From a virus: a stretch of 35,819 bases of DNA. The notes under the pieces are model-generated. The model searched no databases and was not told the origin of the DNA. It saw only the letters and a program-made list of their open reading frames with translations. Shown piece after piece: positions 5,418 to 34,175 of the stretch (position 1 is its first letter; each line of letters starts with the position of its first letter). The translations under genes were made by a program, and so were the position numbers. The stretch lies in IMG/VR virus record IMGVR_UViG_3300045988_054362, positions 1-35,819 of that record; one strand, written 5' to 3'.

Positions 5418-5773
5418 GAGAGCAAGAAATGGCAATAAATGTAGCAAAACAAATTTATTTTGATAATATAGAGAATTTTTACAAAATTGCAAATGAGCGA
5501 AACGAAAACGCAAGCGCAAATGATTTATTTAACGAAGCAGAAACATTCAGACAGATAACGAAACAGTTTATATTAAGAGCTAAAACAATCTGCTCGTATA
5601 CACGTGAGAAATTAAATGAAGTAAGAGTTATATGTATTTACAGAGGACTTGAAGAAGAAGGATATATAAGCGATACGCAATTTATAGAATATCTAAAATA
5701 CACCGACAAGATTATTGATGAAATTCTAAAGCAAGTCGTAGTGCTTGGAGGTGAGCAAAATAGCAGTAATTAG
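5414..5773 (+). CDS. Hypothetical protein
   Basis: ATGA overlap with rusA. 119-aa ORF. Confidence 0.55.
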   Translation: MREQEMAINVAKQIYFDNIENFYKIANERNENASANDLFNEAETFRQITKQFILRAKTICSYTREKLNEVRVICIYRGLEEEGYISDTQFIEYLKYTDKIIDEILKQVVVLGGEQNSSN

Positions 5774-6488
5774 AATTATTAAGAACAAAAACTATACAGT
5801 GATGAGCAATACACATTTAAAAGATAAACGCTTATCACTAAAAGCAATAGGCTTATTAAGTGTTGTTCTTAGTTTACCGGATAATTGGCATTATACAGTG
5901 AATGGATTAGTTGGAATTGTAAAAGACGGTGAAAGAGCAGTAAATGGGGCATTATCTGAATTAAAGGAAAATGGATATTTAAGAATAGAAAAACTTTATC
6001 CAAATAAAGAGGGAAGAAGTAAAATTGAATATCAATATATTTTCAGTGAAACACCTCAAGACCTACAAAATGTAGGTCTACATAATGTAGGACTACAAGA
6101 TGTAGGTTTACAAAATGTAGGTACTTATAAAAATACTAATAAACCAAATACTAATAAATTAAATACTAATAAACAAAGTAAACATAAATATGGAGAATAT
6201 TCACACGTGTTACTTACAGATAAAGAACACACACACCTATTAGATTTATATGGTGATTCATTAGATGAGCATATAAAGATATTAGATGAATATATTGAAA
6301 CGAGTGGAAAGAAATATAAAAATCATTCACTCGTGATTCAGAAGTGGGTACATGATGAATGGACTAAAAGAAATAAAGATAAGCCTATCACACTTGATTC
6401 AAAGTTTTACGCAGAGCAAAGCACAAAGACAGATAAAGAAGTACAAGATGAATTTAATAGGCTTAGAGCACAACTATTTGGAGCATAA
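5760..6488 (+). CDS. Replication initiator / replisome organiser (N-terminal wHTH, C-terminal DnaD-like domain); probable ATA start
   Basis: NYTVMSNTHLKDKRLSLKAIGLLSVVLSLPDNW is typical of a phage replication-protein N-terminus. The C-terminal part (VLLTDKEHTHLLDLYG ... KYKNHSLVIQKWV) is DnaD-like. GGAGG lies 8 nt before ATAGCA at 5760. The TTG 5745 and GTG 5751 alternatives sit inside the SD. Confidence 0.7.
   Translation: MAVIRIIKNKNYTVMSNTHLKDKRLSLKAIGLLSVVLSLPDNWHYTVNGLVGIVKDGERAVNGALSELKENGYLRIEKLYPNKEGRSKIEYQYIFSETPQDLQNVGLHNVGLQDVGLQNVGTYKNTNKPNTNKLNTNKQSKHKYGEYSHVLLTDKEHTHLLDLYGDSLDEHIKILDEYIETSGKKYKNHSLVIQKWVHDEWTKRNKDKPITLDSKFYAEQSTKTDKEVQDEFNRLRAQLFGA
6062..6175. repeat. Putative phage origin: four 15-bp iterons plus three 15-bp AT-rich repeats inside the initiator gene
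   Basis: NCTACAnnATGTAGG occurs four times in tandem (6062, 6077, 6092, 6107), each with a CTACA/TGTAG inverted core. AAATACTAATAAAnn follows three times (6131, 6146, 6161). All are in frame (LQNVG and NTNK peptide repeats). Confidence 0.7.
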
Positions 6489-6501: not shown

Positions 6502-7167
6502 ATGGAAAAAATACAGATTTTAGAACTGTTTGGAGGTATCGGTTCTCCAAGATGTGCGTTAAGAAATATTGGAGTTCCAGTTAAAGCTATCGATTATGTA
6601 GAAATAGATGAAAAAGCAGTTCGTTCTTATAACGCAATGTTTGAAGATGAATTAGCGTATAAAACTCAATCTGTAGTAGGTTGGAATTTAAGACCAGACA
6701 TTTTGATACATGGAAGTCCATGCCAAGATTTCTCGATTGCAGGGAAACAAAAAGGAGCGGATGAAGGCTCCGAAACTCGTAGTTCATTGATGTGGGAAAC
6801 AATTCACATCATTCAACAAATGGGAGTATGGAAGCCTAGATATGTAATTTGGGAAAACGTGAAAAACGTATTGTCAAAACACATGATTCATAACTTCAAT
6901 CGTTATTTGAAAGAAATGGAAAAGATGGGATATACAAATTCGTTTGAAATATTAAATGCAAGAGAATTTGGATTACCGCAAAACAGAAATAGAGTGTTCA
7001 CAGTCTCGATTTTAGGAAATGAATATTTTGAATTTGATGATTTAATCAGAACAAAAGAAAAGAATATCAACGATTTTTTAGAAAAAACATTTGAAGATAA
7101 ATACGTAGTTCGACAAAAAAAGTATGTTAAAAAAAAATTAAATCTAAAGATAGCAGCTTTAAAGTGA
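6502..7167 (+). CDS. DNA (cytosine-5)-methyltransferase, N-terminal part (motifs I-VIII)
   Basis: Motifs seen: FGGIGS (I), GSPCQDFS (IV), ENV (VI), QNRNRVF (VIII). The frame ends shortly after the A9 tract at 7129-7137. Confidence 0.85.
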   Translation: MEKIQILELFGGIGSPRCALRNIGVPVKAIDYVEIDEKAVRSYNAMFEDELAYKTQSVVGWNLRPDILIHGSPCQDFSIAGKQKGADEGSETRSSLMWETIHIIQQMGVWKPRYVIWENVKNVLSKHMIHNFNRYLKEMEKMGYTNSFEILNAREFGLPQNRNRVFTVSILGNEYFEFDDLIRTKEKNINDFLEKTFEDKYVVRQKKYVKKKLNLKIAALK

Positions 7168-7475
7168 AAGTGATTAAAGATTATTGCGATACGATAACGT
7201 GCAAACAAGTACGCAGTCCAAACGCAGGTGTAATTAGATTAGATGATGGAAGATATAGATATTTGACGGAACGTGAATGTTGGAGACTTCAAGGATATAC
7301 GGATGAGGACTTCGATAATGCAGCAAGGGTCAATCCAGGAAAAGAAGGATGTATGAATGGTGCGTTGTATAAGCAAGCTGGTAATTCAATACCTGTTCCA
7401 ATCTTTGAAAGTATATTCCGAAAGATAATACTTAATCAAACTGATATGAGTAATAAAGGAAACAGATTATTTTGA
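7164..7475 (+). CDS. DNA (cytosine-5)-methyltransferase, C-terminal part (TRD end, motifs IX-X)
   Basis: RYLTERECWRLQGY (IX) and GNSIPVP (X). This frame is open from 7131 and lies at -1 relative to the N-terminal part. Confidence 0.8.
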   Translation: MKVIKDYCDTITCKQVRSPNAGVIRLDDGRYRYLTERECWRLQGYTDEDFDNAARVNPGKEGCMNGALYKQAGNSIPVPIFESIFRKIILNQTDMSNKGNRLF

Positions 7476-11705: not shown

Positions 11706-11781
11706 AGCAGGATAGAGCAGTAGTAGCTCGTCGGTCTTATTAGCCGAAGGTCGAACGGTGCAAATCCTTCTCCTGCAACCA
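11706..11781 (+). tRNA. Initiator-type (tRNA-fMet-like) tRNA with anticodon UAU
   Basis: Hand-folded cloverleaf. Acceptor stem AGCAGGA/TCCTGCA with an A1xA72 mismatch. D-stem GAGC/GCTC (A11:U24). Anticodon stem TCGGT/GCCGA with loop CTTATTA (anticodon TAT at 11738-11740). Variable loop AGGTC. T-arm GAA(C)GG-TGCAAAT-CCTTC. Encoded ACCA end. Long blocks are identical to bacterial tRNA-fMet as I recall it. Confidence 0.7.
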
Positions 11782-12185: not shown

Positions 12186-12242
12186 TTTGGAACATTGCAC
12201 ACCAAAAATATTGAGTGATAAATATAGAAAGGGGATGTAATA

Positions 12243-12629
12243 ATAGCGAATGGAAAAGTTGGAAGACCTAACAAGGATTTCGACAAAGAAGAATTTGAAA
12301 AATTGTTAGCTATTCAATGCACGCAAGCAGAAGTATGCTACTTTTTTAACACGACAGATAAGACATTATCAAATTGGTGTAAACGTACATATGGAACTGA
12401 TTTCTCCGAATGTTTAAAAAGGTTCGGCGCACAAGGAAGAATTTCGTTACGAAGAGCGCAATTTAAACTTGCTTCAAAGAGTCCTGCAATGGCTATTTTC
12501 TTAGGAAAACAATTCCTAGGTCAAACTGATAAGGTAGAAACACACTTTGACGCTTCAGAAGTAAATGCAATTAATAAAGCTATGATTACAGATGTAGCAA
12601 AAGAAAGAAGAATTGAAGATTTTGAATAA
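12243..12629 (+). CDS. terS: Terminase small subunit (ATA start)
   Basis: GRPNKDFDKEEFEKLLAIQCTQAEVCYFFNTTDKTLSNWCKR is an N-terminal HTH typical of TerS. The frame opens at 12228 after a TAG. GGGGA lies 7 nt before ATAGCG at 12243. The first canonical codon (TTG 12303) would cut the HTH. Confidence 0.7.
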   Translation: MANGKVGRPNKDFDKEEFEKLLAIQCTQAEVCYFFNTTDKTLSNWCKRTYGTDFSECLKRFGAQGRISLRRAQFKLASKSPAMAIFLGKQFLGQTDKVETHFDASEVNAINKAMITDVAKERRIEDFE

Positions 12630-13950: not shown

Positions 13951-15354
13951 ATAGAAACATCTAACACACGTAGACCGTGGTTTCAGAATTACCTAAACGA
14001 TAGAGGGTATTATGTAGATACAAATGCAATTGAGATTATTGAATTGTGTAATAAGTGGTATACAAATACCGAAACAGAATTTCATACGGCATATACCTTG
14101 AACAATGAGGAATACACGTTGGATAAGACAGACTTTGCAAAGCGTTTATGTGAGGATGACGCAAATCTCATTGAAATCCTAGATATAAACGCAACCGAGG
14201 ACAGTGCCACAAATGACATTATTTCAGACATTCTAAACAAGAATAGGTTTGATGTAATGTACAGGAAACAAGTTGAGCAAATGTCTGCAAATGGTACGGT
14301 AGGAGCTTATGTAACGGTATCAAATGCCGAGATTTATGAAGATGGTACATTCAGTGGAGGAGAAATCAGAATCAATTATTGTGATTCAATGAATATCCTT
14401 CCATTAACTGTTATCAATGATGAAATTGTGGAAGTGGCTTTCGTTGGAGTAAATTATGAGAAGTTAAAAAAAGTATATGTGATGGTCATGTTCTTAAAAG
14501 GACAAGACGAAAGATATATTGCAGAAACACATTACTTTAAAGATACAGGCGAAGAAATAAAAGACCGTGCTCAAATTGTTCAATTAGATGTAGTTAAGCC
14601 GTTTGCAATTATGAGAAACGCAAAGGTAAACAACTTACAAATGCAAGGTTACGGCTTACCGAAGATTTGGAGCGCAATTGCTCCACTAAAAACAATTGAT
14701 TTAACAATGACAATGTGGAATCGAGATTTGTTGAAATCAGATAAAATCGTTCTTGTGAATGAAGCATTAATGCAGAAAGACAAGGATGGAAAAGTAAAAC
14801 AGAATCCACAATTAAAGAATATCTTTGTTCAGTTAGGTAGAGATAAGCTACCGGAAGAAAAAGCTTTATGGCAAGAATATAATCCGACAGTTAGAACGGC
14901 AGAAGTTGTGCAATCACTAGAAACGGCGTTAAGTATCTTATCAATGATGTTTGGATTCGGTACAAAGAAATACACGTTTGAGAGTGGAAGAATTGTGACG
15001 GCTACAGAATATATCGGCGAAAACCAAGACGCAATGAAGGAAGTAAATGCACAACGTAAAGAATCTACGGCATATATTCAAGATATTATTCAAGCAATAG
15101 CGTACTTCTATGAATTGACACAAGGCAGAAAGCTTAATATCAATTCATTAGACATTGCTATTGATTATGACGATACATATATCGAGGATAAACAAAGCAC
15201 GGCACAAGCGTTAAGGAATGACGCATTAACATTTGATATTCCAAGATTGAAGATTATGTACTTTATGAAACAATACGGTTTCACAGAAGAAGAAGCAACG
15301 GAGTTATTAAATGAAGAAATTCAAGATGATGGAGAGGGGGATGACGAAGAATAG
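13951..15354 (+). CDS. Portal protein (SPP1 gp6-like), ATA start
   Basis: Size and position match a portal. AGGAGG (13939-13944) lies 6 nt before ATA 13951. The frame opens one codon earlier, at the terL stop. 31 codons have no ATG/GTG/TTG before TTG 14044, which lacks an SD. Confidence 0.8.
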   Translation: METSNTRRPWFQNYLNDRGYYVDTNAIEIIELCNKWYTNTETEFHTAYTLNNEEYTLDKTDFAKRLCEDDANLIEILDINATEDSATNDIISDILNKNRFDVMYRKQVEQMSANGTVGAYVTVSNAEIYEDGTFSGGEIRINYCDSMNILPLTVINDEIVEVAFVGVNYEKLKKVYVMVMFLKGQDERYIAETHYFKDTGEEIKDRAQIVQLDVVKPFAIMRNAKVNNLQMQGYGLPKIWSAIAPLKTIDLTMTMWNRDLLKSDKIVLVNEALMQKDKDGKVKQNPQLKNIFVQLGRDKLPEEKALWQEYNPTVRTAEVVQSLETALSILSMMFGFGTKKYTFESGRIVTATEYIGENQDAMKEVNAQRKESTAYIQDIIQAIAYFYELTQGRKLNINSLDIAIDYDDTYIEDKQSTAQALRNDALTFDIPRLKIMYFMKQYGFTEEEATELLNEEIQDDGEGDDEE

Positions 15355-18258: not shown

Positions 18259-19254
18259 ATGGTAGGAAAACAAGTTACAGAGCTAAACGCATTGCCTAGC
18301 TTTACAGATAATAGCCTATTGCCTGTACACAATGGCGCAGGATTAAAAAAAGGTTTATTATCTCAATTAGCAAACTATCTAGGAACTAAATTTAGCAATC
18401 CGAATTTATTGATTAATCCGGACTTTAAAGTAAATCAACGTGCGCTTGCAACGTACAGTGAAAATGATTATTCGTTTGATAGATGGAAAATTTACAATAC
18501 AACAGTAAAGCAATTAGGTAATGGGATAAGCTATAAAGGTGGAAGCGCAACAACTAACTCTCTAGGAAATTTAGACAATTATATAAGCCAAATATTGGAT
18601 ACTGAATTAAATGAGGAATTTACAATTTCGATAAAGGTGTCTTCTATTGTAGGTTCGTTCAGACTTGAAGCTATGAAAAAAGGAGGAGACAGTCTTCATG
18701 GTAAAGACGCTCTCATTGGAAAAAAAGAAATCACAACAAACGGAATCCATACGCTAACACTTGATGGTTCAAATGCACCATTAAGTATTATCAGATTTGG
18801 TACTACATCGCAAAGTGGGGCTTGTACAATCGAATGGGTTAAATTGGAAAAAGGTAAACACGCTACTGCTTTTATTCATCCAATTTATAGCGAAGAATAC
18901 GTGAAATGTATGTGGTATTTTCAACCACTTGTCGGAGCTAGAAGCGGTTATGTTTCAAACGGCACTATCTACATTAATGTTCCGGAGGTTAATTCAATGA
19001 GAAATTCTAAACCATCTGCGAATAACAATAAGATGAATTTAGGCGGTTTTATTTATACAGGAACAAACACTTTAATCACGGTTAAAAGGTCAGATATTAT
19101 CGGTGCTATGGTTGACGATTATAAAGAGTTACAGTTAAATCCTTCAAGCGAATTGAAGAATAAATTGAAAGCAATTGGAATTACTACGATTAACTATGAT
19201 ATTGAACCTAGTGGTGGAATTTATCTAGACGCAGAAATTTACGATGATGAATAG
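18259..19254 (+). CDS. Receptor-binding / tail fibre protein candidate
   Basis: ATG follows AAAGGAGG. The N-terminus (VTELNALPSFTDNSLLPVHNGAGLKKGLLSQLANYL) is fibre-attachment-like. The position fits the fibre module. Confidence 0.5.
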   Translation: MVGKQVTELNALPSFTDNSLLPVHNGAGLKKGLLSQLANYLGTKFSNPNLLINPDFKVNQRALATYSENDYSFDRWKIYNTTVKQLGNGISYKGGSATTNSLGNLDNYISQILDTELNEEFTISIKVSSIVGSFRLEAMKKGGDSLHGKDALIGKKEITTNGIHTLTLDGSNAPLSIIRFGTTSQSGACTIEWVKLEKGKHATAFIHPIYSEEYVKCMWYFQPLVGARSGYVSNGTIYINVPEVNSMRNSKPSANNNKMNLGGFIYTGTNTLITVKRSDIIGAMVDDYKELQLNPSSELKNKLKAIGITTINYDIEPSGGIYLDAEIYDDE

Positions 19255-21662: not shown

Positions 21663-22532
21663 ATAGCAAATGAAATTGCATTAGCTAAAACGTATGTCTC
21701 AAATCTTGATGAGGTTTACAAATTAGCTTCAGTAACAGGTGATTTAAACGCCGACGCTACAATGGTTAGAGCAGGAGCAAACGCAAAAGAAATCATCTAT
21801 CCACAGATTGCCGTTAAAGGTTTAGGAAACTACGACAGAAACAATGGTTATACATCTAACTCAGTTAAATTGGAATGGAAAACTGCAACATTCGACTACG
21901 ATAGAGGAACTAAAATCTCAGTTGATACACAAGACAATGCAGAATCAATGAATATTGCGTTCGGTAGAGCAGGAGCAGAATTAATGCGTACAAAGGTAGC
22001 ACCGGAAGCGGACGCTTACACATTCGCTAAAATTGCCGGTACAACAGGAATCACAAAAGTTTCAGAAGATTATGCAAGTGCAGAAGAGTTCTTGAGTGCA
22101 TTGTTAAAAGCGGTTACTAAAATGGATGAGGATGAAGTGCCAAGTGAACAACGTATCTTGTATTCTACTCCTACATTATTGAATAGCGTTAAAGCTTTAG
22201 ATACTTACAAATCACGTGAAGCTTTACAAGGATTCGCAAAGGTAGTTCCTGTACCTGCTAGTCGTTTCTATACAAAGATTAAATTGTTGAGTGGAGCAGA
22301 TACAGAAGCAGAAGGTGGATATACTAAAGCAGAGGATGGACACGTTATCAACTTCTTGATTGTTCATAAACCTTCTGTTATGAAATGGGATAAACACACT
22401 GTTTCAAATGTAATTCCGGCAAGCAATAACATTGAATCAGATTCAGATGTATTGAAATATCGTAAGTATGGAATCGTTGATGTATACGCAAATAAGGTAG
22501 CAGGTATTTACTTATCTGCTAGTGCTAAGTAA
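21663..22532 (+). CDS. Major capsid protein, ATA start
   Basis: AAGGAGG lies 8 nt before ATAGCA at 21663. The frame opens at 21660 after a TAA. 33 codons (ANEIALAKTYVSNLDEVYKLASVTGDLNADAT) precede the first ATG (21762), which has no SD. Confidence 0.8.
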   Translation: MANEIALAKTYVSNLDEVYKLASVTGDLNADATMVRAGANAKEIIYPQIAVKGLGNYDRNNGYTSNSVKLEWKTATFDYDRGTKISVDTQDNAESMNIAFGRAGAELMRTKVAPEADAYTFAKIAGTTGITKVSEDYASAEEFLSALLKAVTKMDEDEVPSEQRILYSTPTLLNSVKALDTYKSREALQGFAKVVPVPASRFYTKIKLLSGADTEAEGGYTKAEDGHVINFLIVHKPSVMKWDKHTVSNVIPASNNIESDSDVLKYRKYGIVDVYANKVAGIYLSASAK

Positions 22533-23004: not shown

Positions 23005-23420
23005 TAGGATTCTTTGACGATTCAATCACACTTGTTAATCACTACTACGATACATTGACAAGAGAAGATAGGTTTCAAGCTTATATTCTTGATAAATGTA
23101 TGTGGAGACAATCTACTATTAGGACTGCAAATGGTAATATTCTGAGCATAGCCACATCCACAAATATTACCATTCTGTATCGTGAGGGATATATTGAACC
23201 TTACGCATACGCAAAGCTTTCAAATGATGAGAAACAAAAACACTTCACATTAAATACAGATAAGACAGATTTCGTGTTCTTTGGAGAAGTGGAAGAAGAT
23301 TTATCCACAATTAAAGCAATAAACGAAGCTAAAAAGAAATACAAATGGACAACAATTCAGAGCGTAACAGATTGTACGAATGTCGATATGTTGAAGCATT
23401 GGGAGGTTGTCGGTCAATAG
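23001..23420 (+). CDS. Head-tail joining / head closure protein
   Basis: ATGA overlap. It lies within the track ORF 22956-23420. The call is positional. Confidence 0.4.
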   Translation: MIGFFDDSITLVNHYYDTLTREDRFQAYILDKCMWRQSTIRTANGNILSIATSTNITILYREGYIEPYAYAKLSNDEKQKHFTLNTDKTDFVFFGEVEEDLSTIKAINEAKKKYKWTTIQSVTDCTNVDMLKHWEVVGQ

Positions 23421-23422
23421 GA

Positions 23423-23779
23423 ATGAAAGTCAAACTTGATGTTGAATCAATACCCAAAATTAAGCAGTCAAGAGGACTTGAAGAACGTGGACGAGTACAA
23501 CAAATGATTGATTCTGAGGTCATTAGGCTTATGTCCCCCTATACGCCTAGAGACACAGGAGCATTGATTAACTCGGCTACACGATTAACACAAATCGGTA
23601 GTGGATTAGTAAAGCAAGGTGGGCCAAGTGCTCCATATGCTAGACGGTGGTATTACAACGAAGAGAATGCTCATTTCGTAGGAGGTAAAACAGACCATTG
23701 GTTTGATAAAGCTATGCGAAATGGTGGAGCAGAGACAATCTTAAAGAAAGCACAACAAATGATAGGAGGTAGTGAATGA
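23423..23779 (+). CDS. HK97 gp10-like head-tail joining protein
   Basis: The ATG lies after the upstream stop. YTPRDTGALINS resembles the gp10-family P-x-D-T-G motif. Confidence 0.5.
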   Translation: MKVKLDVESIPKIKQSRGLEERGRVQQMIDSEVIRLMSPYTPRDTGALINSATRLTQIGSGLVKQGGPSAPYARRWYYNEENAHFVGGKTDHWFDKAMRNGGAETILKKAQQMIGGSE

Positions 23780-24195
23780 CAGTATCAAAAGCATTGATTC
23801 AGTGGCTATATGGCTATGGAAATATACAGATAGATGAACGTATTGAAACGGATGTTTTAGCGCAACAAGCTATCTCTTATGCATTGTATAAAGAACCTAA
23901 TGCAATTGTAGATACATACATTGACGGCTCTCAAATGCGTACTGAATACTACACATTTCTAGCTCGTAGGAATACACAGATTGAATCAGAAAGACAAGAC
24001 AATAATGTTTTTCTAGAAGAATTAGAAAATTGGATTGATGAAAAGAATTTAAACGGAGAATTGCCACAACTAGACGGAAACAGATATTGTCAAGATGTTT
24101 CCGTTTCAAGTGGTTTATATCTATATACAAATGAGGATAATCAAGCAGTATATGCGTTGACTATTCAAATTAAATACAGAAAGGAGCTTAATTAA
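23776..24195 (+). CDS. Tail completion protein candidate
   Basis: ATGA overlap. It sits immediately upstream of the major tail gene. Confidence 0.4.
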   Translation: MTVSKALIQWLYGYGNIQIDERIETDVLAQQAISYALYKEPNAIVDTYIDGSQMRTEYYTFLARRNTQIESERQDNNVFLEELENWIDEKNLNGELPQLDGNRYCQDVSVSSGLYLYTNEDNQAVYALTIQIKYRKELN

Positions 24196-24701
24196 TAGCA
24201 ACTCAAGGAACTGAAGTAAATACAGGACAGACAGTCAAGAAGTATATGATTGGATTGTTCTTAGAAATGGGAACAGGTTACAAGCGAATTAAGAAGTCTA
24301 CAACTTTAGATATTTCGTTTAACAGTGAAACTGAAACGTATGACTTTATCGCAGATAAGAACCCAACAGAATCATTAAAGAGTTATTCACCTCAGATTTC
24401 GCAAGATTTAACAATGATTAAAGGCGAAGATGATTTTGAATACATTTACGAACAAATGATGAAATCCGTACCAAACAACGAAGAAGTAAATACAAAAGCT
24501 TTACTTGTATTCATGTTTGACGGAGACAAAACTAAAGGCTATAAAGCGTGGGAAGTTGACGCTAAATTGATTTTCGATACATTAAGCGGTGTCGATTCAA
24601 AAATCAACTTCAATATTAACTTTGCAAGCGATATTCGTGTCGGTGCTGCAAAGGTAGCAGATGGAACAGTAACCTTCACAGAAGGTACATCAGAAGTATA
24701 A
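24195..24701 (+). CDS. Major tail protein, probable ATA start
   Basis: AAGGAG lies 8 nt before ATAGCA at 24195, in a TAATA overlap with the upstream stop. The frame opens at 24192. The first ATG (24246) lacks an SD. Confidence 0.6.
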   Translation: MATQGTEVNTGQTVKKYMIGLFLEMGTGYKRIKKSTTLDISFNSETETYDFIADKNPTESLKSYSPQISQDLTMIKGEDDFEYIYEQMMKSVPNNEEVNTKALLVFMFDGDKTKGYKAWEVDAKLIFDTLSGVDSKINFNINFASDIRVGAAKVADGTVTFTEGTSEV

Positions 24702-25662: not shown

Positions 25663-28242
25663 ATATCAGACGGAACATTAAAGTTTGATACAAAGATTGA
25701 TACAAGTGGTCTAGAGAATGGACTGAAATCCGTTCATGAAGTCACAAGTGGAGCTACAAATGCTATCAAAGAAACTTCAAAAGCGATTGATAAGTTAGGT
25801 TCTGATGGTTCAAAAGCACCACCAAAGATTAGAGATAAACTTAAAGATTTAAACGAAGAGCAAAAGAATACACAGACAGAAACGCAAGAAACAGGTTCTA
25901 AATTTGATGTATTTAAACAAGTAGGAAACAGTGCCTTAGAATCAATTCAAGGTGGATTTGATGGACTATTAGGAAAGATTCAGAATATTAGTCCGGAAGC
26001 TTCTGCAATCACTGAAACATTAACAGGATTAGGAGTTGGAGGTGTTGTAGGTGTTACTGCCGTAGCAGGAGCTATCGGTGGTATGGCACTAGCAATTAAG
26101 ACAGGTGTTAACCAAGCTACAGAACTAGATGACGCTATGGCTAAATTCCAAGCTCAGACAGGTGCTTCAAGCAATGAAATGAGCAAATTTAAAAACATTG
26201 CTCGTGATGTTTGGTCTAATAATTTTGGTGAAGATATTTCAGATGTTGCCGATATGATGGGCAGAGTCAAGCAACAAATGCAAGGCATAAGTGACGTTGA
26301 CCTAAAGAACGTGACCGAGGATTTATTAACTTTAAGAGATACATTTGATATGGATGAGAATGAAACTCTTAGAGGTGCTCAACAATTAATGAAGCAATTC
26401 GGAATCACTTCTCAAGAAGCTTTCGACCTTATGGCTACAGGTGCTCAGAATGGTTTAAACAAATCAGATGAGTTAGGCGACAACATTTCAGAATACTCCG
26501 GTAAATTCGCACAAGCAGGATATTCGGCAGATGAATATTTCCAATTAATGCAGAATGGATTAGATGGTGGAGCTTATAACCTTGATAAAGTTAATGACGC
26601 AATCAACGAAGTTACCACAAGGTTAGTTGATGGAACTATTGAAGGAGCTTTAGATAGTTTTGATACCAAAACACAAGATGTATTTAAGGCATGGCAAGAA
26701 GGAAGAGCAACTCAAAAAGATGTTGTGAATGCGATTGTAGAAGATATTTCAAAGACTACAAATGAACAAGAAAAGTTGAATAAATCTGCAACGGCTTTCG
26801 GCACAATGGGAGAAGATTTCAACGCCGGATTCATTCAGTCCTTAACGACAGTAGGGAATAAATATAAAGACGTAGAAGGGGCAATGGATAAAGTTAAAGA
26901 TATCGCAAATGGTGGCTTAAAGAACGCTTTAAGTGGCTTAGGACGCGCATTTCTTGATTCATTTACTCCAATAGGCGAACTTATTACCCCTATTCTTGCA
27001 GGCATTGTAGGATTAATTACAGTAGCAATTCAAGGCATTCAACAAGGATTTGCTAAAGTTGGTGATGTAATTTCAAGCGTATTAAGTAAGATTGATACAA
27101 GTGGAATTACAGAATTAACAAATCAAGTTTCCGAAGTGTTAGCTCCTGCGTTTGATGAAGTTAGAAAAGCTATTGATGAAATGAAAGTTGCGCTTGAACC
27201 TATTGCAAAAGAAATCTTAGGTAAAATTGGTAACGCAATTCAAAATGTTGTTAACCAAGCTCAAAAGATTCTTAGCGTTGTAGGACCACCGATTCTAGCA
27301 ATCATTAAGAAGATTATTCAAACAGTTATCGGTATGATTCCTGTAATAACATCTATTCTTCAAGTAGTTGGAAGTGTGGTAAGTGGAATCATTTCATTTA
27401 TAACTATGGTTGTGAAGTATGTCGGAACTGCAATTGCAACAATACTAGGATTTATCATGCCTATTGTTCAAATTGTTGCTACAATCGTAGCGAATATTTG
27501 GTCTGTAATATTAACGGTTGCTCAAAATATTTGGAGCAAGATTAGCGAAGTGGTTACTGCAATTATTGGATTTGTCAACAATTTGTTTAAGACGGTTTCG
27601 GATATCATAAACAATATTTGGAGCAAGATTCAAGATACAATGAACAGAGTAGGAGATAAAGTTAAAGGTGTTATTGATAATATCAATAAATATTTCAATA
27701 ATATCAAATCTACGGTTTCTGATGTATTCAATGGCATTTGGGCTAAAGTTCAAGGTGTAATGGATAATGTAGGAAATAAAATTTCAAATGTTTTACAAGG
27801 AATACAAAATTCATGGAGTGGTTTAAAAGGATTTGTAAGTGGTGTATTTGGTGGAATTGAAGGAGCAGTTAGTTCGTTAGTTGGAAGTGTAAAAGGAATG
27901 GTAAATGGTGTTATCGGTGGCATTAACGGTGCAATCGGTATCATCAATAAGATTCCCGGAGTTCACATTGGAAAGATTCCAAGACTAGAGCGTGGTGGTG
28001 TATTGAAGCGTGGCCAAATCGGTTTATTAGAAGGTAATGGAGCAGAAGCGGTTGTACCTTTAGAAAGAAATAAAGCATGGATTCGTGCCGTAGCTAAAGA
28101 TATGGCTCAAATCATGCCTAGTGTAACCACAAACAACAATGGGCAGACTATCAACTTCTACAATAAAGCTCAAAGTCCGGATGAAATCGCTCGAATGTTA
28201 CGCATGCAGGCAAGATATGGATATGGAGGTGTAGTTCAATAG
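25663..28242 (+). CDS. Tape measure protein, ATA start
   Basis: There is an in-frame TGA at 25660-25662, then ATA. GGAGG lies 11 nt upstream. 140 codons have no ATG/GTG/TTG before ATG 26083. The N-terminus (SDGTLKFDTKIDTSGLENG) is TMP-like. Long helical/hydrophobic repeats (NIWSKI...) follow. Confidence 0.8.
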   Translation: MSDGTLKFDTKIDTSGLENGLKSVHEVTSGATNAIKETSKAIDKLGSDGSKAPPKIRDKLKDLNEEQKNTQTETQETGSKFDVFKQVGNSALESIQGGFDGLLGKIQNISPEASAITETLTGLGVGGVVGVTAVAGAIGGMALAIKTGVNQATELDDAMAKFQAQTGASSNEMSKFKNIARDVWSNNFGEDISDVADMMGRVKQQMQGISDVDLKNVTEDLLTLRDTFDMDENETLRGAQQLMKQFGITSQEAFDLMATGAQNGLNKSDELGDNISEYSGKFAQAGYSADEYFQLMQNGLDGGAYNLDKVNDAINEVTTRLVDGTIEGALDSFDTKTQDVFKAWQEGRATQKDVVNAIVEDISKTTNEQEKLNKSATAFGTMGEDFNAGFIQSLTTVGNKYKDVEGAMDKVKDIANGGLKNALSGLGRAFLDSFTPIGELITPILAGIVGLITVAIQGIQQGFAKVGDVISSVLSKIDTSGITELTNQVSEVLAPAFDEVRKAIDEMKVALEPIAKEILGKIGNAIQNVVNQAQKILSVVGPPILAIIKKIIQTVIGMIPVITSILQVVGSVVSGIISFITMVVKYVGTAIATILGFIMPIVQIVATIVANIWSVILTVAQNIWSKISEVVTAIIGFVNNLFKTVSDIINNIWSKIQDTMNRVGDKVKGVIDNINKYFNNIKSTVSDVFNGIWAKVQGVMDNVGNKISNVLQGIQNSWSGLKGFVSGVFGGIEGAVSSLVGSVKGMVNGVIGGINGAIGIINKIPGVHIGKIPRLERGGVLKRGQIGLLEGNGAEAVVPLERNKAWIRAVAKDMAQIMPSVTTNNNGQTINFYNKAQSPDEIARMLRMQARYGYGGVVQ

Positions 28243-29111
28243 ATATCAATAAAGTAAGAGTTATTGTCCGTAGGGATGATGGAAAAGAATTTGAAATCGA
28301 CAACCAAAAAAGATGGAAGATTCCTTCAAGTAGTGGTTTAGATGGATTTGATTATGTAGCACCTTCATATACAACTCAAGACAATGCATTCGGAAACGGT
28401 GCTAGATTAATCGGTTCACGTATTCCTACAAAAGAAAGAAGCGTGAAAGCTACCTTTAAAGGCTCACTAGAAGAAAAAAGAGAAGAAAGGGAGAAGCTAC
28501 GGCGCTTCTTCCAATATTCTCATATATTTGATGTGATAGTCGAGTACATGGGAGAAAAGAAATATTGCAGAGGTAGATTATATGCGTATAGCTTACCAAC
28601 TGCTAACATCTACAAAGAATTAGAACTTGACTTTACGATATTATGCACACAACCTTTATTACTTTCATTTGATGATTTTGCAATGAATATTGCAGAAATT
28701 GGGGAAGGTTTAGCGTTCAATTTTGAAATACCGGAAACAGGCGTAAACTTTGGAACATTTACATTCGCTAGAGAAATCTATATTGATAATCAAGGCGATA
28801 CAGAAACATACTGTAGAGCAGTTATTGAAGCATTTGGAGATGTAACGAATCCAAAACTATTCAATAAAGATAAATATATTCGTGTATTAGATACACTACA
28901 CAATGGTGATGTATTAGAAATTGATTTAGTTTCTGAGCCTATTTCGATTAAAAAGAATGGTGTGAATTGTATCGGCAAAGTTGACAGAACCTCATCATTC
29001 AATGATATGACGATTCATTTAGGTGAGAATATCATAGGATATACGGCAGACAATGGAGATACGAATCTAGCTTGCACGGTTTATTACAATGAAAGGTATT
29101 TAGGTTTATAG
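28239..29111 (+). CDS. Distal tail protein (Dit), ATA start
   Basis: ATAGAT overlaps the TMP stop (caATAGat). GGAGG lies 9 nt upstream. 68 codons without a canonical start precede GTG 28443 and encode a typical Dit N-terminal domain. Confidence 0.7.
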   Translation: MDINKVRVIVRRDDGKEFEIDNQKRWKIPSSSGLDGFDYVAPSYTTQDNAFGNGARLIGSRIPTKERSVKATFKGSLEEKREEREKLRRFFQYSHIFDVIVEYMGEKKYCRGRLYAYSLPTANIYKELELDFTILCTQPLLLSFDDFAMNIAEIGEGLAFNFEIPETGVNFGTFTFAREIYIDNQGDTETYCRAVIEAFGDVTNPKLFNKDKYIRVLDTLHNGDVLEIDLVSEPISIKKNGVNCIGKVDRTSSFNDMTIHLGENIIGYTADNGDTNLACTVYYNERYLGL

Positions 29112-30138: not shown

Positions 30139-30651
30139 ATAGAAAAGAAAAATGGAGGATTTAAACAAATAGCAAGAAGTATGTTTTTTCTAGATAAGAT
30201 TAATGCAATGTGTGGTGTTGCCGTAGCCGTATTAACATACGTATTAGGTGAACATTGGTATTTATTCGCATTCTTCTTATTTATGAATGTAGTGGATTAT
30301 ATTACAGGGTGCATGAAATCGGCTATCGCTCATAAAATCAATAGCAACAAAGGTTGGACAGGTGTTTTAAAAAAGCTAGGCTATTGGATTATGATTGTTG
30401 TTGCGTTCACATTTAGTGCATTTCTAGTAGAAGTAGGAGAAATTCTAGGAATTGATTTCCATGTATCTACATTGTTAGGTTGGTTTGTGTTAGCTTCGTT
30501 ATGTATTAATGAATCTCGTAGTGTTATGGAGAATTTATTACAATGTGGTTACAATGTACCAAAAGCATTAACTAAAGGATTAGAAGTAGCAGATAAACTC
30601 ATTAACGAAAACGAAGAACAAGACAATGACGAATCAAGTACCTTGGAATAA
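30139..30651 (+). CDS. Holin (LL-H/phiLC3 family); start ambiguous (ATA 30139, ATA 30169 or ATG 30181)
   Basis: Three hydrophobic helices and the DYITG motif. AAGGAG lies 8 nt before ATAGAA at 30139. The listed GTG 30130 is inside the SD. Confidence 0.7.
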   Translation: MEKKNGGFKQIARSMFFLDKINAMCGVAVAVLTYVLGEHWYLFAFFLFMNVVDYITGCMKSAIAHKINSNKGWTGVLKKLGYWIMIVVAFTFSAFLVEVGEILGIDFHVSTLLGWFVLASLCINESRSVMENLLQCGYNVPKALTKGLEVADKLINENEEQDNDESSTLE

Positions 30652-33210: not shown

Positions 33211-33220
33211 TAAAAACCTC

Positions 33221-33237
33221 TTTTATGTGCTATAATT
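33221..33237 (+). promoter_or_regulatory. Extended -10 promoter (TGcTATAAT) in front of the endolysin; copy 1 of a 17-nt repeat
   Basis: TTTTATGTGCTATAATT with TATAAT at 33231-33236. An identical 17-mer occurs at 34088-34104. Confidence 0.5.
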
Positions 33238-33261
33238 AGTGCATAAAGGAGGATTTTTTTA

Positions 33262-34023
33262 ATAAATTATCAAAATTTCAAAAAAGCCGTATTAGGCAAA
33301 GCATTCGACATTGACGGATACTATGGTTCGCAATGTTGGGACGGATTCGCAAAGTACATGATTGATTTAGGCTATCAAGCTATTCATTGCACAACGAGTA
33401 AATTTGTTAAGGACATTTGGAACAACAGAAAGACAAACGGAATCTTAAACTACTGCAATGAAGTTTCAATTATGCAACCTGGAGACATTGCCGTCTTTAA
33501 AGAAGTAGCAGGATGGACGCCATACAGTCATATTGCTATTTTTGATTCAGATATTGACGGTAAATTTGGATGGTTCTTAGGACAGAACCAAGGTGGAAAG
33601 AATGGAGCATTTACACTTTGCAAATTGCCTTATTACGCAACGTTTGATACCGCATTTAGACCTAAATGTTTCGCAAATAGTGGAGCTACAAGTCCAAGCA
33701 TTCCACAACCTGTGGAAGCAATCGACCAAATCTTACACGCAGGAAGTTACGTAACATCAGTTCAAATGAAGATTGGCAATCAAGGATTGAAAAACATCAA
33801 TAACGAGACTTGTGCTTATTTACCACAATTAGGCGGTTTGTTTCCAATTCGTATGGTTGACAAAGTTCGCTATTCTGATGGATATAATGATAACGTATTG
33901 CATACAACAAATGCCGTTGTCTATGTAACTAGAATTCGTGTTGATGAAGTCAATGTGCAAAAGAATCTTGCAAAAATCGGTGGAATTTGGGTAAATTGTG
34001 ACCCATTAATTGAAGTAGCATAA
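33262..34023 (+). CDS. Endolysin, N-terminal CHAP amidase/peptidase plus a C-terminal wall-binding domain, ATA start
   Basis: The CHAP motifs are DIDGYYGSQCWDG (catalytic Cys), YSHIAIF (His) and LGQNQGG. The Cys is encoded at about 33334, upstream of the first ATG (33358). The frame opens at 33247. GGAGG lies 9 nt before ATA 33262. Confidence 0.8.
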   Translation: MNYQNFKKAVLGKAFDIDGYYGSQCWDGFAKYMIDLGYQAIHCTTSKFVKDIWNNRKTNGILNYCNEVSIMQPGDIAVFKEVAGWTPYSHIAIFDSDIDGKFGWFLGQNQGGKNGAFTLCKLPYYATFDTAFRPKCFANSGATSPSIPQPVEAIDQILHAGSYVTSVQMKIGNQGLKNINNETCAYLPQLGGLFPIRMVDKVRYSDGYNDNVLHTTNAVVYVTRIRVDEVNVQKNLAKIGGIWVNCDPLIEVA

Positions 34024-34060
34024 ATTACATATAAAACCTTAAACTATTTTTCGTATATTA

Positions 34061-34091
34061 GACCGTATAATTTTGTACGGTCTTTGTTTTT
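34061..34091 (+). terminator. Intrinsic terminator after the endolysin
   Basis: GACCGTA, 8-nt loop, TACGGTC, then TTTGTTTTT. Confidence 0.7.
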
Positions 34092-34104
34092 ATGTGCTAT
34101 AATT
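34088..34104 (+). promoter_or_regulatory. Extended -10 promoter, copy 2 of the 17-nt repeat (no ORF downstream)
   Basis: TTTTATGTGCTATAATT with TATAAT at 34098-34103. Confidence 0.45.
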
Positions 34105-34109
34105 TATAT

Positions 34110-34175
34110 GGCTTTGAGGTTAATATACATTTTGATATTAATTTATGGTAGCTCTGTTTATACAGGGCTTTTTTT
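34110..34175 (+). ncRNA. Candidate small RNA (orphan promoter-to-terminator unit, about 66 nt)
   Basis: The predicted start is about 7 nt after the -10. The terminator is AGCTCTG, loop TTTATA, CAGGGCT plus T7 (34150-34175). No SD-preceded ORF lies inside. Confidence 0.3.

Follow-up and report, generated by a model that had tools for sequence, protein, structure and literature searches.

We analyzed the start of the endolysin gene in a 35,819-nucleotide (nt) stretch of viral DNA, IMG/VR record IMGVR_UViG_3300045988_054362, positions 1 to 35,819 (hereafter the window), where the lysin reading frame has no canonical start codon ahead of its catalytic cysteine and an ATA codon stands behind a Shine-Dalgarno sequence (SD). 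The features at the locus are as follows.

33217..33252, plus strand: 16-bp hairpin, CCTCTTTTATGTGCTA/TAAT/TAGTGCATAAAGGAGG, terminator-like (terminator scan, folding)
33228..33236, plus strand: extended -10-like motif TGCTATAAT, in the 5' arm and loop of the hairpin, conserved in relatives
33245..33252, plus strand: SD AAAGGAGG, 9 nt 5' of ATA 33262, doubling as the 3' arm of the hairpin
33247, plus strand: opening of the lysin reading frame, right after the TAA at 33244-33246 (direct reading)
33254..33260, plus strand: T7 run, SD-to-start spacer and U-tract of the terminator-like hairpin; relatives have 5, 7 or 8 T
33262..33264, plus strand: ATA start codon of the lysin, invariant in 18 related contigs, ATG in 4 others
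33262..34023, plus strand: endolysin gene, 253 codons plus stop from the ATA, with an N-terminal CHAP domain (about residues 5-115) and a C-terminal wall-binding half
33334..33336, plus strand: Cys25 codon TGT (CHAP nucleophile, in GSQCWDG), invariant in a 35-sequence alignment
33358..33360, plus strand: first canonical start, the ATG at codon 33, without SD; its product lacks Cys25
33529..33531, plus strand: His90 codon CAT (CHAP catalytic His, in YSHIAIF), 3' of ATG 33358, invariant in the same alignment

From the TAA at 33244-33246 the lysin frame runs on as AGG AGG ATT TTT TTA, followed by ATA at 33262 and then by AAT TAT CAA; the 9-nt spacer between SD and ATA is ATTTTTTTA. No ATG, GTG or TTG occurs in the frame ahead of ATG 33358, which is why a lister of open reading frames (ORFs) gives only a 221-residue ORF from that position, and DIDGYYGSQCWDG is encoded in the frame between the ATA and this ATG. 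An earlier note on this DNA had described the frame, the SD, the ATA, the first ATG and the catalytic Cys and His, and all of these statements were correct on rereading. The codon of the nucleophile precedes ATG 33358 and can be reached only from a non-canonical start, and that of His90 lies downstream, so that a product started at 33358 would miss the nucleophile, as the note had argued.

The Pfam CHAP profile (PF05257) matched residues 18-97 of the ATA-started protein with an E value of 1.5e-5 and 25.8 bits, just below the gathering score of 26 bits, and it found no match in the form started at 33358, in line with the contrast that the note had drawn between the two forms. PHROG endolysin families aligned from lysin residue 2. 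The CHAP domain was 58% identical to that of the Streptococcus phage B30 lysin, and the CHAP domains of lysin L2 and LytN in the PDB matched the lysin with an E value of 2.4e-5, with GSQCWD of the lysin aligned to GWQCFD of the solved domains. Residues Q24, C25, D27, H90, N109 and Q110 were invariant in the alignment of 35 homologues. By profile, structure match and catalytic residues the protein is a CHAP-domain endolysin, predicted to cleave peptidoglycan.

Comparative evidence for the lysin start

We collected 531 homologues of the lysin. Most were 252-264 residues long and covered the whole query, and most began with MNYEQFK or MTYQEFK, their Met1 aligning exactly with the ATA of the window. 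The nearest homologues had been called through the ribosome-binding site (MVHKGGFLINYQ, in which KGG is AAAGGAGG translated) or from Met71, at 183 residues. Distant relatives in Erysipelotrichaceae and Streptococcus genomes all had an ATG, within two codons of the position of the window's ATA.

A set of 22 related viral contigs allowed a closer comparison. The cassette of SD, T-run and ATA was present in 18 of the 22, and the other 4 had ATG at the lysin start codon and a different upstream junction. Across the 18 contigs, which held 17 distinct sequences, the ATA was constant, and the variation in codons 2-32 was distributed 8/6/19 over codon positions 1, 2 and 3. Judged by this pattern, codons 2-32 of the lysin frame evolve like coding sequence and the N-terminal segment is translated; on the same alignments, ATA 33262 is the only sensibly placed start of the lysin. 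The proposal that this ATA is the start has therefore held, given its invariance, its place at Met1 of the homologues and the coding-type variation that follows it.

Two further variants were seen at this site. One relative (L019, ~470-500) has a tandem duplication just 3' of the lysin start (ATA AAT TAT CAA GAA ATT TAT CAA GAA), and in another (L015, 2998-3003) a TTG lies directly 5' of the lysin ATA.

ATA starts across the genome and the UAU tRNA

We scanned the whole window for an SD followed by an ATA that opens a reading frame or lies no more than a few codons from its opening. Nine genes besides the lysin open in this way.

5760..6488, plus strand: replication initiator, SD GGAGGTG and ATA start
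12240..12629, plus strand: small terminase (terS), probable ATA start at 12240 or 12243 (SD scan, relatives)
13951..15354, plus strand: portal, SD AAGGAGG and ATA start; ATA in 32/32 relatives
21663..22532, plus strand: major head protein, SD AAGGAGG and ATA start; ATA in 35 close relatives, ATG in 21 distant ones
23417..23779, plus strand: minor head protein, probable ATA start; ATA in 34 relatives, ATG in 1
24195..24701, plus strand: tail gene in the major-tail position, ATA start; ATA in 30 relatives, ATG in 1
25663..28242, plus strand: tape measure, ATA the first codon of the open frame; ATA in 32/32 relatives
28239..29111, plus strand: distal tail protein (Dit), ATA start; ATA in 28/28 relatives
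30139..30651, plus strand: holin-like gene, ATA start; ATA in 23 relatives, and ATG variants exist

In the major head gene, positions 2-294 of the 297 in the PHROG profile aligned with residues 2-288 of the ATA-started protein. The first ATG of this gene is codon 34, and that of the tape measure lies 140 codons downstream. When conservation of the starts was assessed across ~35 relatives, start codons were found to swap between ATA and ATG in both directions, while ATG control genes stayed constant; in 3 relatives, for example, ATA replaces the ATG with which the gene at 18259 starts in the window. Neither the SD-based scan nor the comparison of the relatives' starts showed any ATT or ATC start. 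Internal ATA codons, of which the late genes have 58, aligned with Ile in 56% of cases and with Met in 3.7%, the same profile as ATT and ATC, and we conclude that the elongation code is standard.

Since high-copy structural genes start at ATA, it cannot be a weak start reserved to throttle the lysin. The suggestion in the earlier note that the ATA acts as a lysin-specific translational brake on lysis accordingly found no support, as about ten genes use an SD with ATA, including those for the major head protein, portal and tape measure.

Standard gene callers skip ATA, and in public databases the entries for these proteins that lack the N-terminus or are read through from upstream already number in the thousands, as in portal cluster P0121 and lysin cluster P0020. 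The mis-called public clusters that we met (P0121, P0020, P0001 and P0157) contain the portal at 436 residues (P0121, 1406 members), the lysin at 183 residues and the lysin extended through its SD (MVQKGGF...). The portal of a prophage in Amedibacillus, described below, is ~55 residues too short in the public clusters. A lysin cloned from the annotated ORF would lack the catalytic Cys.

A likely reason why ATA works as a start in this phage is a tRNA gene that is flanked by terminators and borders on the packaging and late module.

11706..11781, plus strand: phage tRNA with anticodon UAU (Rfam), with A1xA72, G2:C71, C3:G70, A11:U24, A73 and an encoded CCA

The Rfam tRNA model matched at 11706-11778 with 49 bits and marked 1:72 as a non-pair. 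The anticodon loop, CUUAUUA, gives the anticodon UAU, the exact complement of AUA. The best matches in E. coli, at 79% identity, were to the tRNA-Met cluster between mltA and amiC, whose three genes we take to be metZWV; there were 4 such places per genome, the number of initiator copies. The tRNA was 81% identical to a Listeria tRNA-Met(CAU) bearing C1xA72, and overall ~80% identical to Listeria and Staphylococcus tRNA-Met(CAU) with C1xA72, A11:U24 and three G:C pairs. Initiators of Listeria, Staphylococcus and E. coli share A11:U24 and the acceptor-stem determinants with the phage tRNA, and the differences from the Listeria and Staphylococcus tRNAs in the anticodon arm are G31U, C34U, A37U and C39G.

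Initiator tRNAs are defined by an unpaired 1:72, by A11:U24, and by G2:C71, C3:G70 and A73, which are formylation determinants. The phage tRNA has all of these, as well as an overall kinship to initiators; it lacks the CAU anticodon and the three consecutive G:C pairs 29-31:39-41. Compared with an elongator tRNA-Ile(UAU), it has the UAU anticodon and lacks the paired 1:72 and the purine at 37. Given its UAU anticodon, the tRNA is a derivative of the initiator family and not a tRNA-fMet.

Viral and human-gut metagenome contigs yielded 64 copies of the tRNA in 10 variants. A1xA72, A11:U24, A73 and CCA, positions that lay outside the search pattern, were invariant in all 10, and G2:C71 and C3:G70 were found in all copies. 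The wider tRNA family showed compensatory changes at 12 of 20 pairs, with 99.5% of cells paired, and within it 4:69 covaried while 1:72 stayed unpaired. A search of viral contigs for the initiator-arm pattern with a base other than C34 returned this clade only.

The tRNA and the ATA starts occur together. The tRNA was present in 16/16 near-complete contigs with an ATA lysin and in 0/4 with an ATG lysin (Fisher p = 2e-4). At SD-backed ORF openings the ATA/ATG count was 9/17 in the window and 63/180 in tRNA-bearing loci, against 4/86 in relatives with an initiator-type tRNA(CAU) and 1/39 in unrelated genome loci; a further comparison set 68/193 in tRNA-bearing loci against 29/387 elsewhere. Relatives that carry the CAU initiator-type tRNA, or that are without the UAU tRNA, use ATG starts. 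A second, independent lineage with the tRNA and ATA starts is the prophage of Amedibacillus sp. YH-ame6, whose portal is 54% identical to that of the window. Its tRNA, just 5' of terS, has the same anticodon loop, A1xA72 and A11:U24, and ARAGORN reads its anticodon as tat; terS, portal, capsid, tail and tape measure of this prophage all start with SD and ATA. As YH-ame6 is a cultured isolate, the system is directly testable there.

RNA elements were also seen in other relatives. In the distant relatives L099 and L103 (8839-8918, 9260-9331), a skipping-rope RNA and an initiator-type tRNA(CAU) lie just 5' of an ATG-start capsid gene, and L115 (3772-3853) carries a RAGATH-28 RNA.

The proposed initiation mechanism and its alternatives

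We propose, with a probability of roughly 0.65, that a phage-encoded initiator tRNA with a switched anticodon makes ATA a start codon private to the phage. In this model the tRNA at 11706-11781 would have descended from a bacterial initiator tRNA-fMet by a change of anticodon from CAU to UAU, and the UAU anticodon would pair fully with AUA in the ribosomal P site. The endolysin would then be translated from ATA 33262 as a 253-residue CHAP lysin, and the ATA-start genes (replication initiator, packaging, head, tail, holin-like and lysin) would be made efficiently only with the tRNA present. By analogy with engineered initiators of switched anticodon, the tRNA would probably be charged by isoleucyl-tRNA synthetase and formylated via its acceptor-stem determinants, which would give the proteins (formyl-)Ile in place of Met at their N-termini. 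A broader version, to which we give even odds, is that this is natural orthogonal initiation, in which the UAU initiator starts about one-third of the phage genes at ATA, probably with formyl-Ile. Replication, virion and lysis proteins would then be made only while the phage expresses its own tRNA, and leaky expression of the prophage would be blocked at the level of translation. With its altered anticodon arm (U34, U37, G39), the phage tRNA may in addition allow initiation to go on should a VapC-type nuclease of the host destroy the host's own initiator.

Published work on E. coli is consistent with such a mechanism. The normal initiator reads AUA at 0.1-1% of AUG, and initiators with mutated anticodons are efficient at the complementary codons (PMC11744186). 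The engineered i-tRNA-AAC initiates only at GUU, with Val or fVal, the amino acid following the anticodon (bioRxiv 10.64898/2025.12.21.695813).

Several observations weigh against the proposed mechanism. The ordinary initiator of S. aureus reads AUA at 10-30% of AUG with an extended SD (PMC13009471), and an AUA mRNA behaved like an AUG mRNA in an optimized E. coli in-vitro system described in the literature; initiation at AUA thus does not strictly call for a dedicated tRNA. The anticodon-stem pairs of the phage tRNA are G:C, G:C and U-G in the window (2/3) and A:U, G:C and U-G in most variants (1/3), while CAU-type phage tRNAs and bacterial reference initiators have all three G:C pairs; IF3 monitors these three consecutive pairs and discriminates against tRNAs without them (PMC9723500). 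U37 is invariant, and it is unusual for any tRNA. The D- and T-loops of the window tRNA are non-canonical, and ARAGORN, run on the window, reported no tRNA, probably because of U37, a D-loop without the usual GG, the T-loop UGCAAAU and a bulged T-stem; in the Amedibacillus copy, which shares U37, both loops are canonical. No more than two independent lineages, together with related contigs, underlie the co-occurrence, and the tRNA was scored as absent by an exact pattern. Finally, covariation in the lysin hairpin is weak: the sequences are too much alike to show double compensatory changes.

Of the alternatives, the one that survives best is that the host fMet-tRNA(CAU) reads ATA through a C-A mismatch with the help of strong SDs, and that the phage tRNA is an Ile elongator or unrelated. 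It would fit the S. aureus genes infC, ccpN and citZ, which start at AUA with extended SDs, as well as the E. coli extracts, the incomplete set of G:C pairs, the label tRNA-Ile that ARAGORN gives the Amedibacillus copy, and the internal ATA codons that the late genes contain. We nevertheless regard it as unlikely. High-copy structural genes (major head, tail) use ATA, and ATA starts fall to background level in relatives without the UAU tRNA; a relaxed initiator would also permit ATT and ATC starts, which are not seen. The tRNA keeps 1:72 unpaired while 4:69 covaries, retains A11:U24, G2:C71 and C3:G70, and has initiator tRNAs, not tRNA-Ile, as its nearest relatives. An unpaired 1:72 disfavors use by EF-Tu.

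A second alternative, that translation begins at a canonical upstream start (GTG 33239, or TTG in relatives) with transcriptional or ribosomal slippage on the T-run, draws on the variable length of that 7-nt run and on the frame upstream, which is open in relatives with 5 or 8 T and was used there by gene callers (MVHKGGF...). Because the T-run is 5, 7 or 8 nt long among relatives, however, the upstream frame is not conserved. It is closed five codons upstream in the window and 6 relatives and is open without any start in 3 more, and in 10 of the 19 cassette sequences (window plus 9 of the 18 contigs) no canonical start is available upstream. None of the upstream candidates is preceded by an SD, and none lies beyond the predicted transcription start; the residues KGG are the SD read as protein, and the same ATA geometry is found at nine other genes without a T-run. 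On the closed frames and the coding-type variation we rejected this explanation, which we hold to be very improbable.

An equally slight chance attaches to the lysin being a decaying pseudogene or an assembly error, whose output would be the 221-residue product from ATG 33358 alone, if any protein at all. Gene callers do give only the short ORF, and some other endolysins make wall-binding fragments from internal starts. Yet 17 distinct sequences, drawn from several metagenomes, retain the ATA and the N-terminal 32 codons, with substitutions distributed as in coding sequence, no SD precedes 33358, and the short form has no recognizable catalytic domain; this explanation was rejected on the conserved ATA and the coding-type substitutions among relatives. 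Reassignment of AUA to Met in the phage or host, as in vertebrate mitochondria, would explain why ATA and ATG swap at start positions and is the least credible of all, rejected because internal ATA, like ATT and ATC, aligned with Ile and only rarely with Met.

Putative control elements at the lysin and phage context

The hairpin at 33217-33252 has a predicted energy of -23 kcal/mol (z = -6.7), none of 200 shuffled sequences was as stable, and the T7 run follows it directly. It is kept in 14 sequences, in which 11 one-sided changes retain pairing and 2 cells are broken. The TGnTATAAT motif at 33228-33236, which the earlier note had read as an extended -10 promoter, is present and conserved in relatives at the level of sequence; no -35 match was found for it, and a two-hexamer promoter scan did not list it. 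Transcription from it is predicted to start near 33243, and a transcript from there leaves the SD unpaired.

By this arrangement the terminator-like hairpin would end the upstream operon and bury the SD, predicted to be occluded in read-through transcripts, and the promoter inside the hairpin would yield a short leader with a free SD. The variable T-run serves both as U-tract of the hairpin and as spacer between SD and start. Both promoter and terminator are putative elements. Any translational control at the lysin would more likely lie in SD occlusion and dependence on the tRNA than in a weak codon, and the tRNA may also serve in timing or gating.

A second terminator-like hairpin follows the lysin gene.

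34060..34083, plus strand: terminator-like hairpin 3' of the lysin gene (terminator scan)

Directly 3' of this terminator is a second exact 17-nt copy of the promoter motif, TTTTATGTGCTATAATT, at 34087-34103, followed by ~65 nt and then by a terminator-like hairpin at 34150-34169. The segment 34087-34176 on the plus strand looks like a small non-coding transcription unit.

The window is that of a temperate-type siphovirus of ~33% G+C, with a minus-strand repressor followed by genes for Erf, RusA, a methyltransferase, a MazG-like protein and SSB. No translation helpers of phage origin (formyltransferase, deformylase or IF-like proteins) were detected when the non-structural ORFs were compared with Pfam and PHROGs. 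There were no near-identical annotated phages, and protein matches to cultured phages were all below 60% identity. A GTDB scan with the lysin protein found nothing, and one with the alignment found only relatives of the CHAP half, in Erysipelotrichaceae and Streptococcus. The relatives come from human gut metagenomes and the nearest named hosts are Erysipelotrichaceae, from which we infer that the host belongs to the Erysipelotrichaceae of the human gut.

Other elements were noted in passing. Rfam matched a type II hammerhead ribozyme at 2041-2107 on the plus strand, in the early region of the window (37.8 bits against a gathering score of 37), and a C5 cytosine DNA methyltransferase is apparently split between ORFs 6502-7167 and 7164-7475 on the plus strand, which overlap by 4 nt. 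In two phages with an ATG lysin, L010 (3964-4039) and L011 (3971-4046), a tRNA-Asp(GTC) lies ~200 nt 3' of the lysin, at the end of the contig, and is probably an integration site.

Comparison with known systems

A search of full-text literature, in which few subscription-journal papers were covered, yielded neither a phage initiator tRNA whose anticodon had been switched in nature nor a systematic use of ATA starts; it did turn up AUA starts of single regulatory genes, orthogonal initiators made by engineering and the recoding of stop codons in phages. This points to a private ATA start codon with its own initiator-type tRNA not having been described in nature so far. If the proposed mechanism is true, this would be the first natural virus found to extend the set of start codons with an initiator tRNA of its own.

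The lysin itself resembles the CHAP endolysins of the Streptococcus agalactiae phage B30 and PlyGBS type, with which it shares the N-terminus (M-x-Y-x-x-F/Y-K), the position of the Cys and the 58% CHAP identity. B30-type lysins, however, start at ATG and have additional Acm and SH3b domains, whereas the C-terminal half of the window lysin is different and shorter, and is common to prophages of Faecalibaculum and other Erysipelotrichaceae.

Regulatory non-AUG starts read by the normal initiator are known in E. coli infC (AUU) and in S. aureus infC, ccpN and citZ (AUA; PMC13009471); in the latter, as here, an extended SD precedes the AUA and the initiation region is of Firmicute type. Those are single, low-expression genes without a dedicated tRNA, while here one-third of the SD-backed genes are concerned, including that of the major capsid protein. 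In mitochondria AUA also serves as an initiation codon, through tRNA-Met with f5C34, but there a single modified tRNA-Met decodes AUA as Met at every position, whereas the phage has a distinct UAU tRNA and internal AUA is Ile.

The closest functional parallel is with engineered orthogonal initiation (the amber initiator tRNA-CUA, and i-tRNA-AAC for GUU), which follows the same logic, an initiator body with a changed anticodon starting at the complementary codon (PMC11744186; bioRxiv 10.64898/2025.12.21.695813). Those initiators are laboratory constructs in E. coli, whereas the phage tRNA is natural, conserved in 64 copies and matched by ~10 native ATA-start genes; it differs from them also in having just 1-2 of the 3 G:C pairs and U37. 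Stop-codon recoding by suppressor tRNAs of gut phages is similar in that a phage tRNA changes the reading of a codon, and in that structural and lysis genes are enriched in the affected codons, suggesting translational gating of the late program (bioRxiv 10.1101/2021.08.26.457843; PMC9523058). Such recoding acts in elongation and termination, while here the sense code is unchanged and only initiation would be extended. If the mechanism holds, the UAU tRNA and its ATA starts would parallel phage stop-codon recoding at the level of initiation, and engineered orthogonal initiation would have a precedent in nature.

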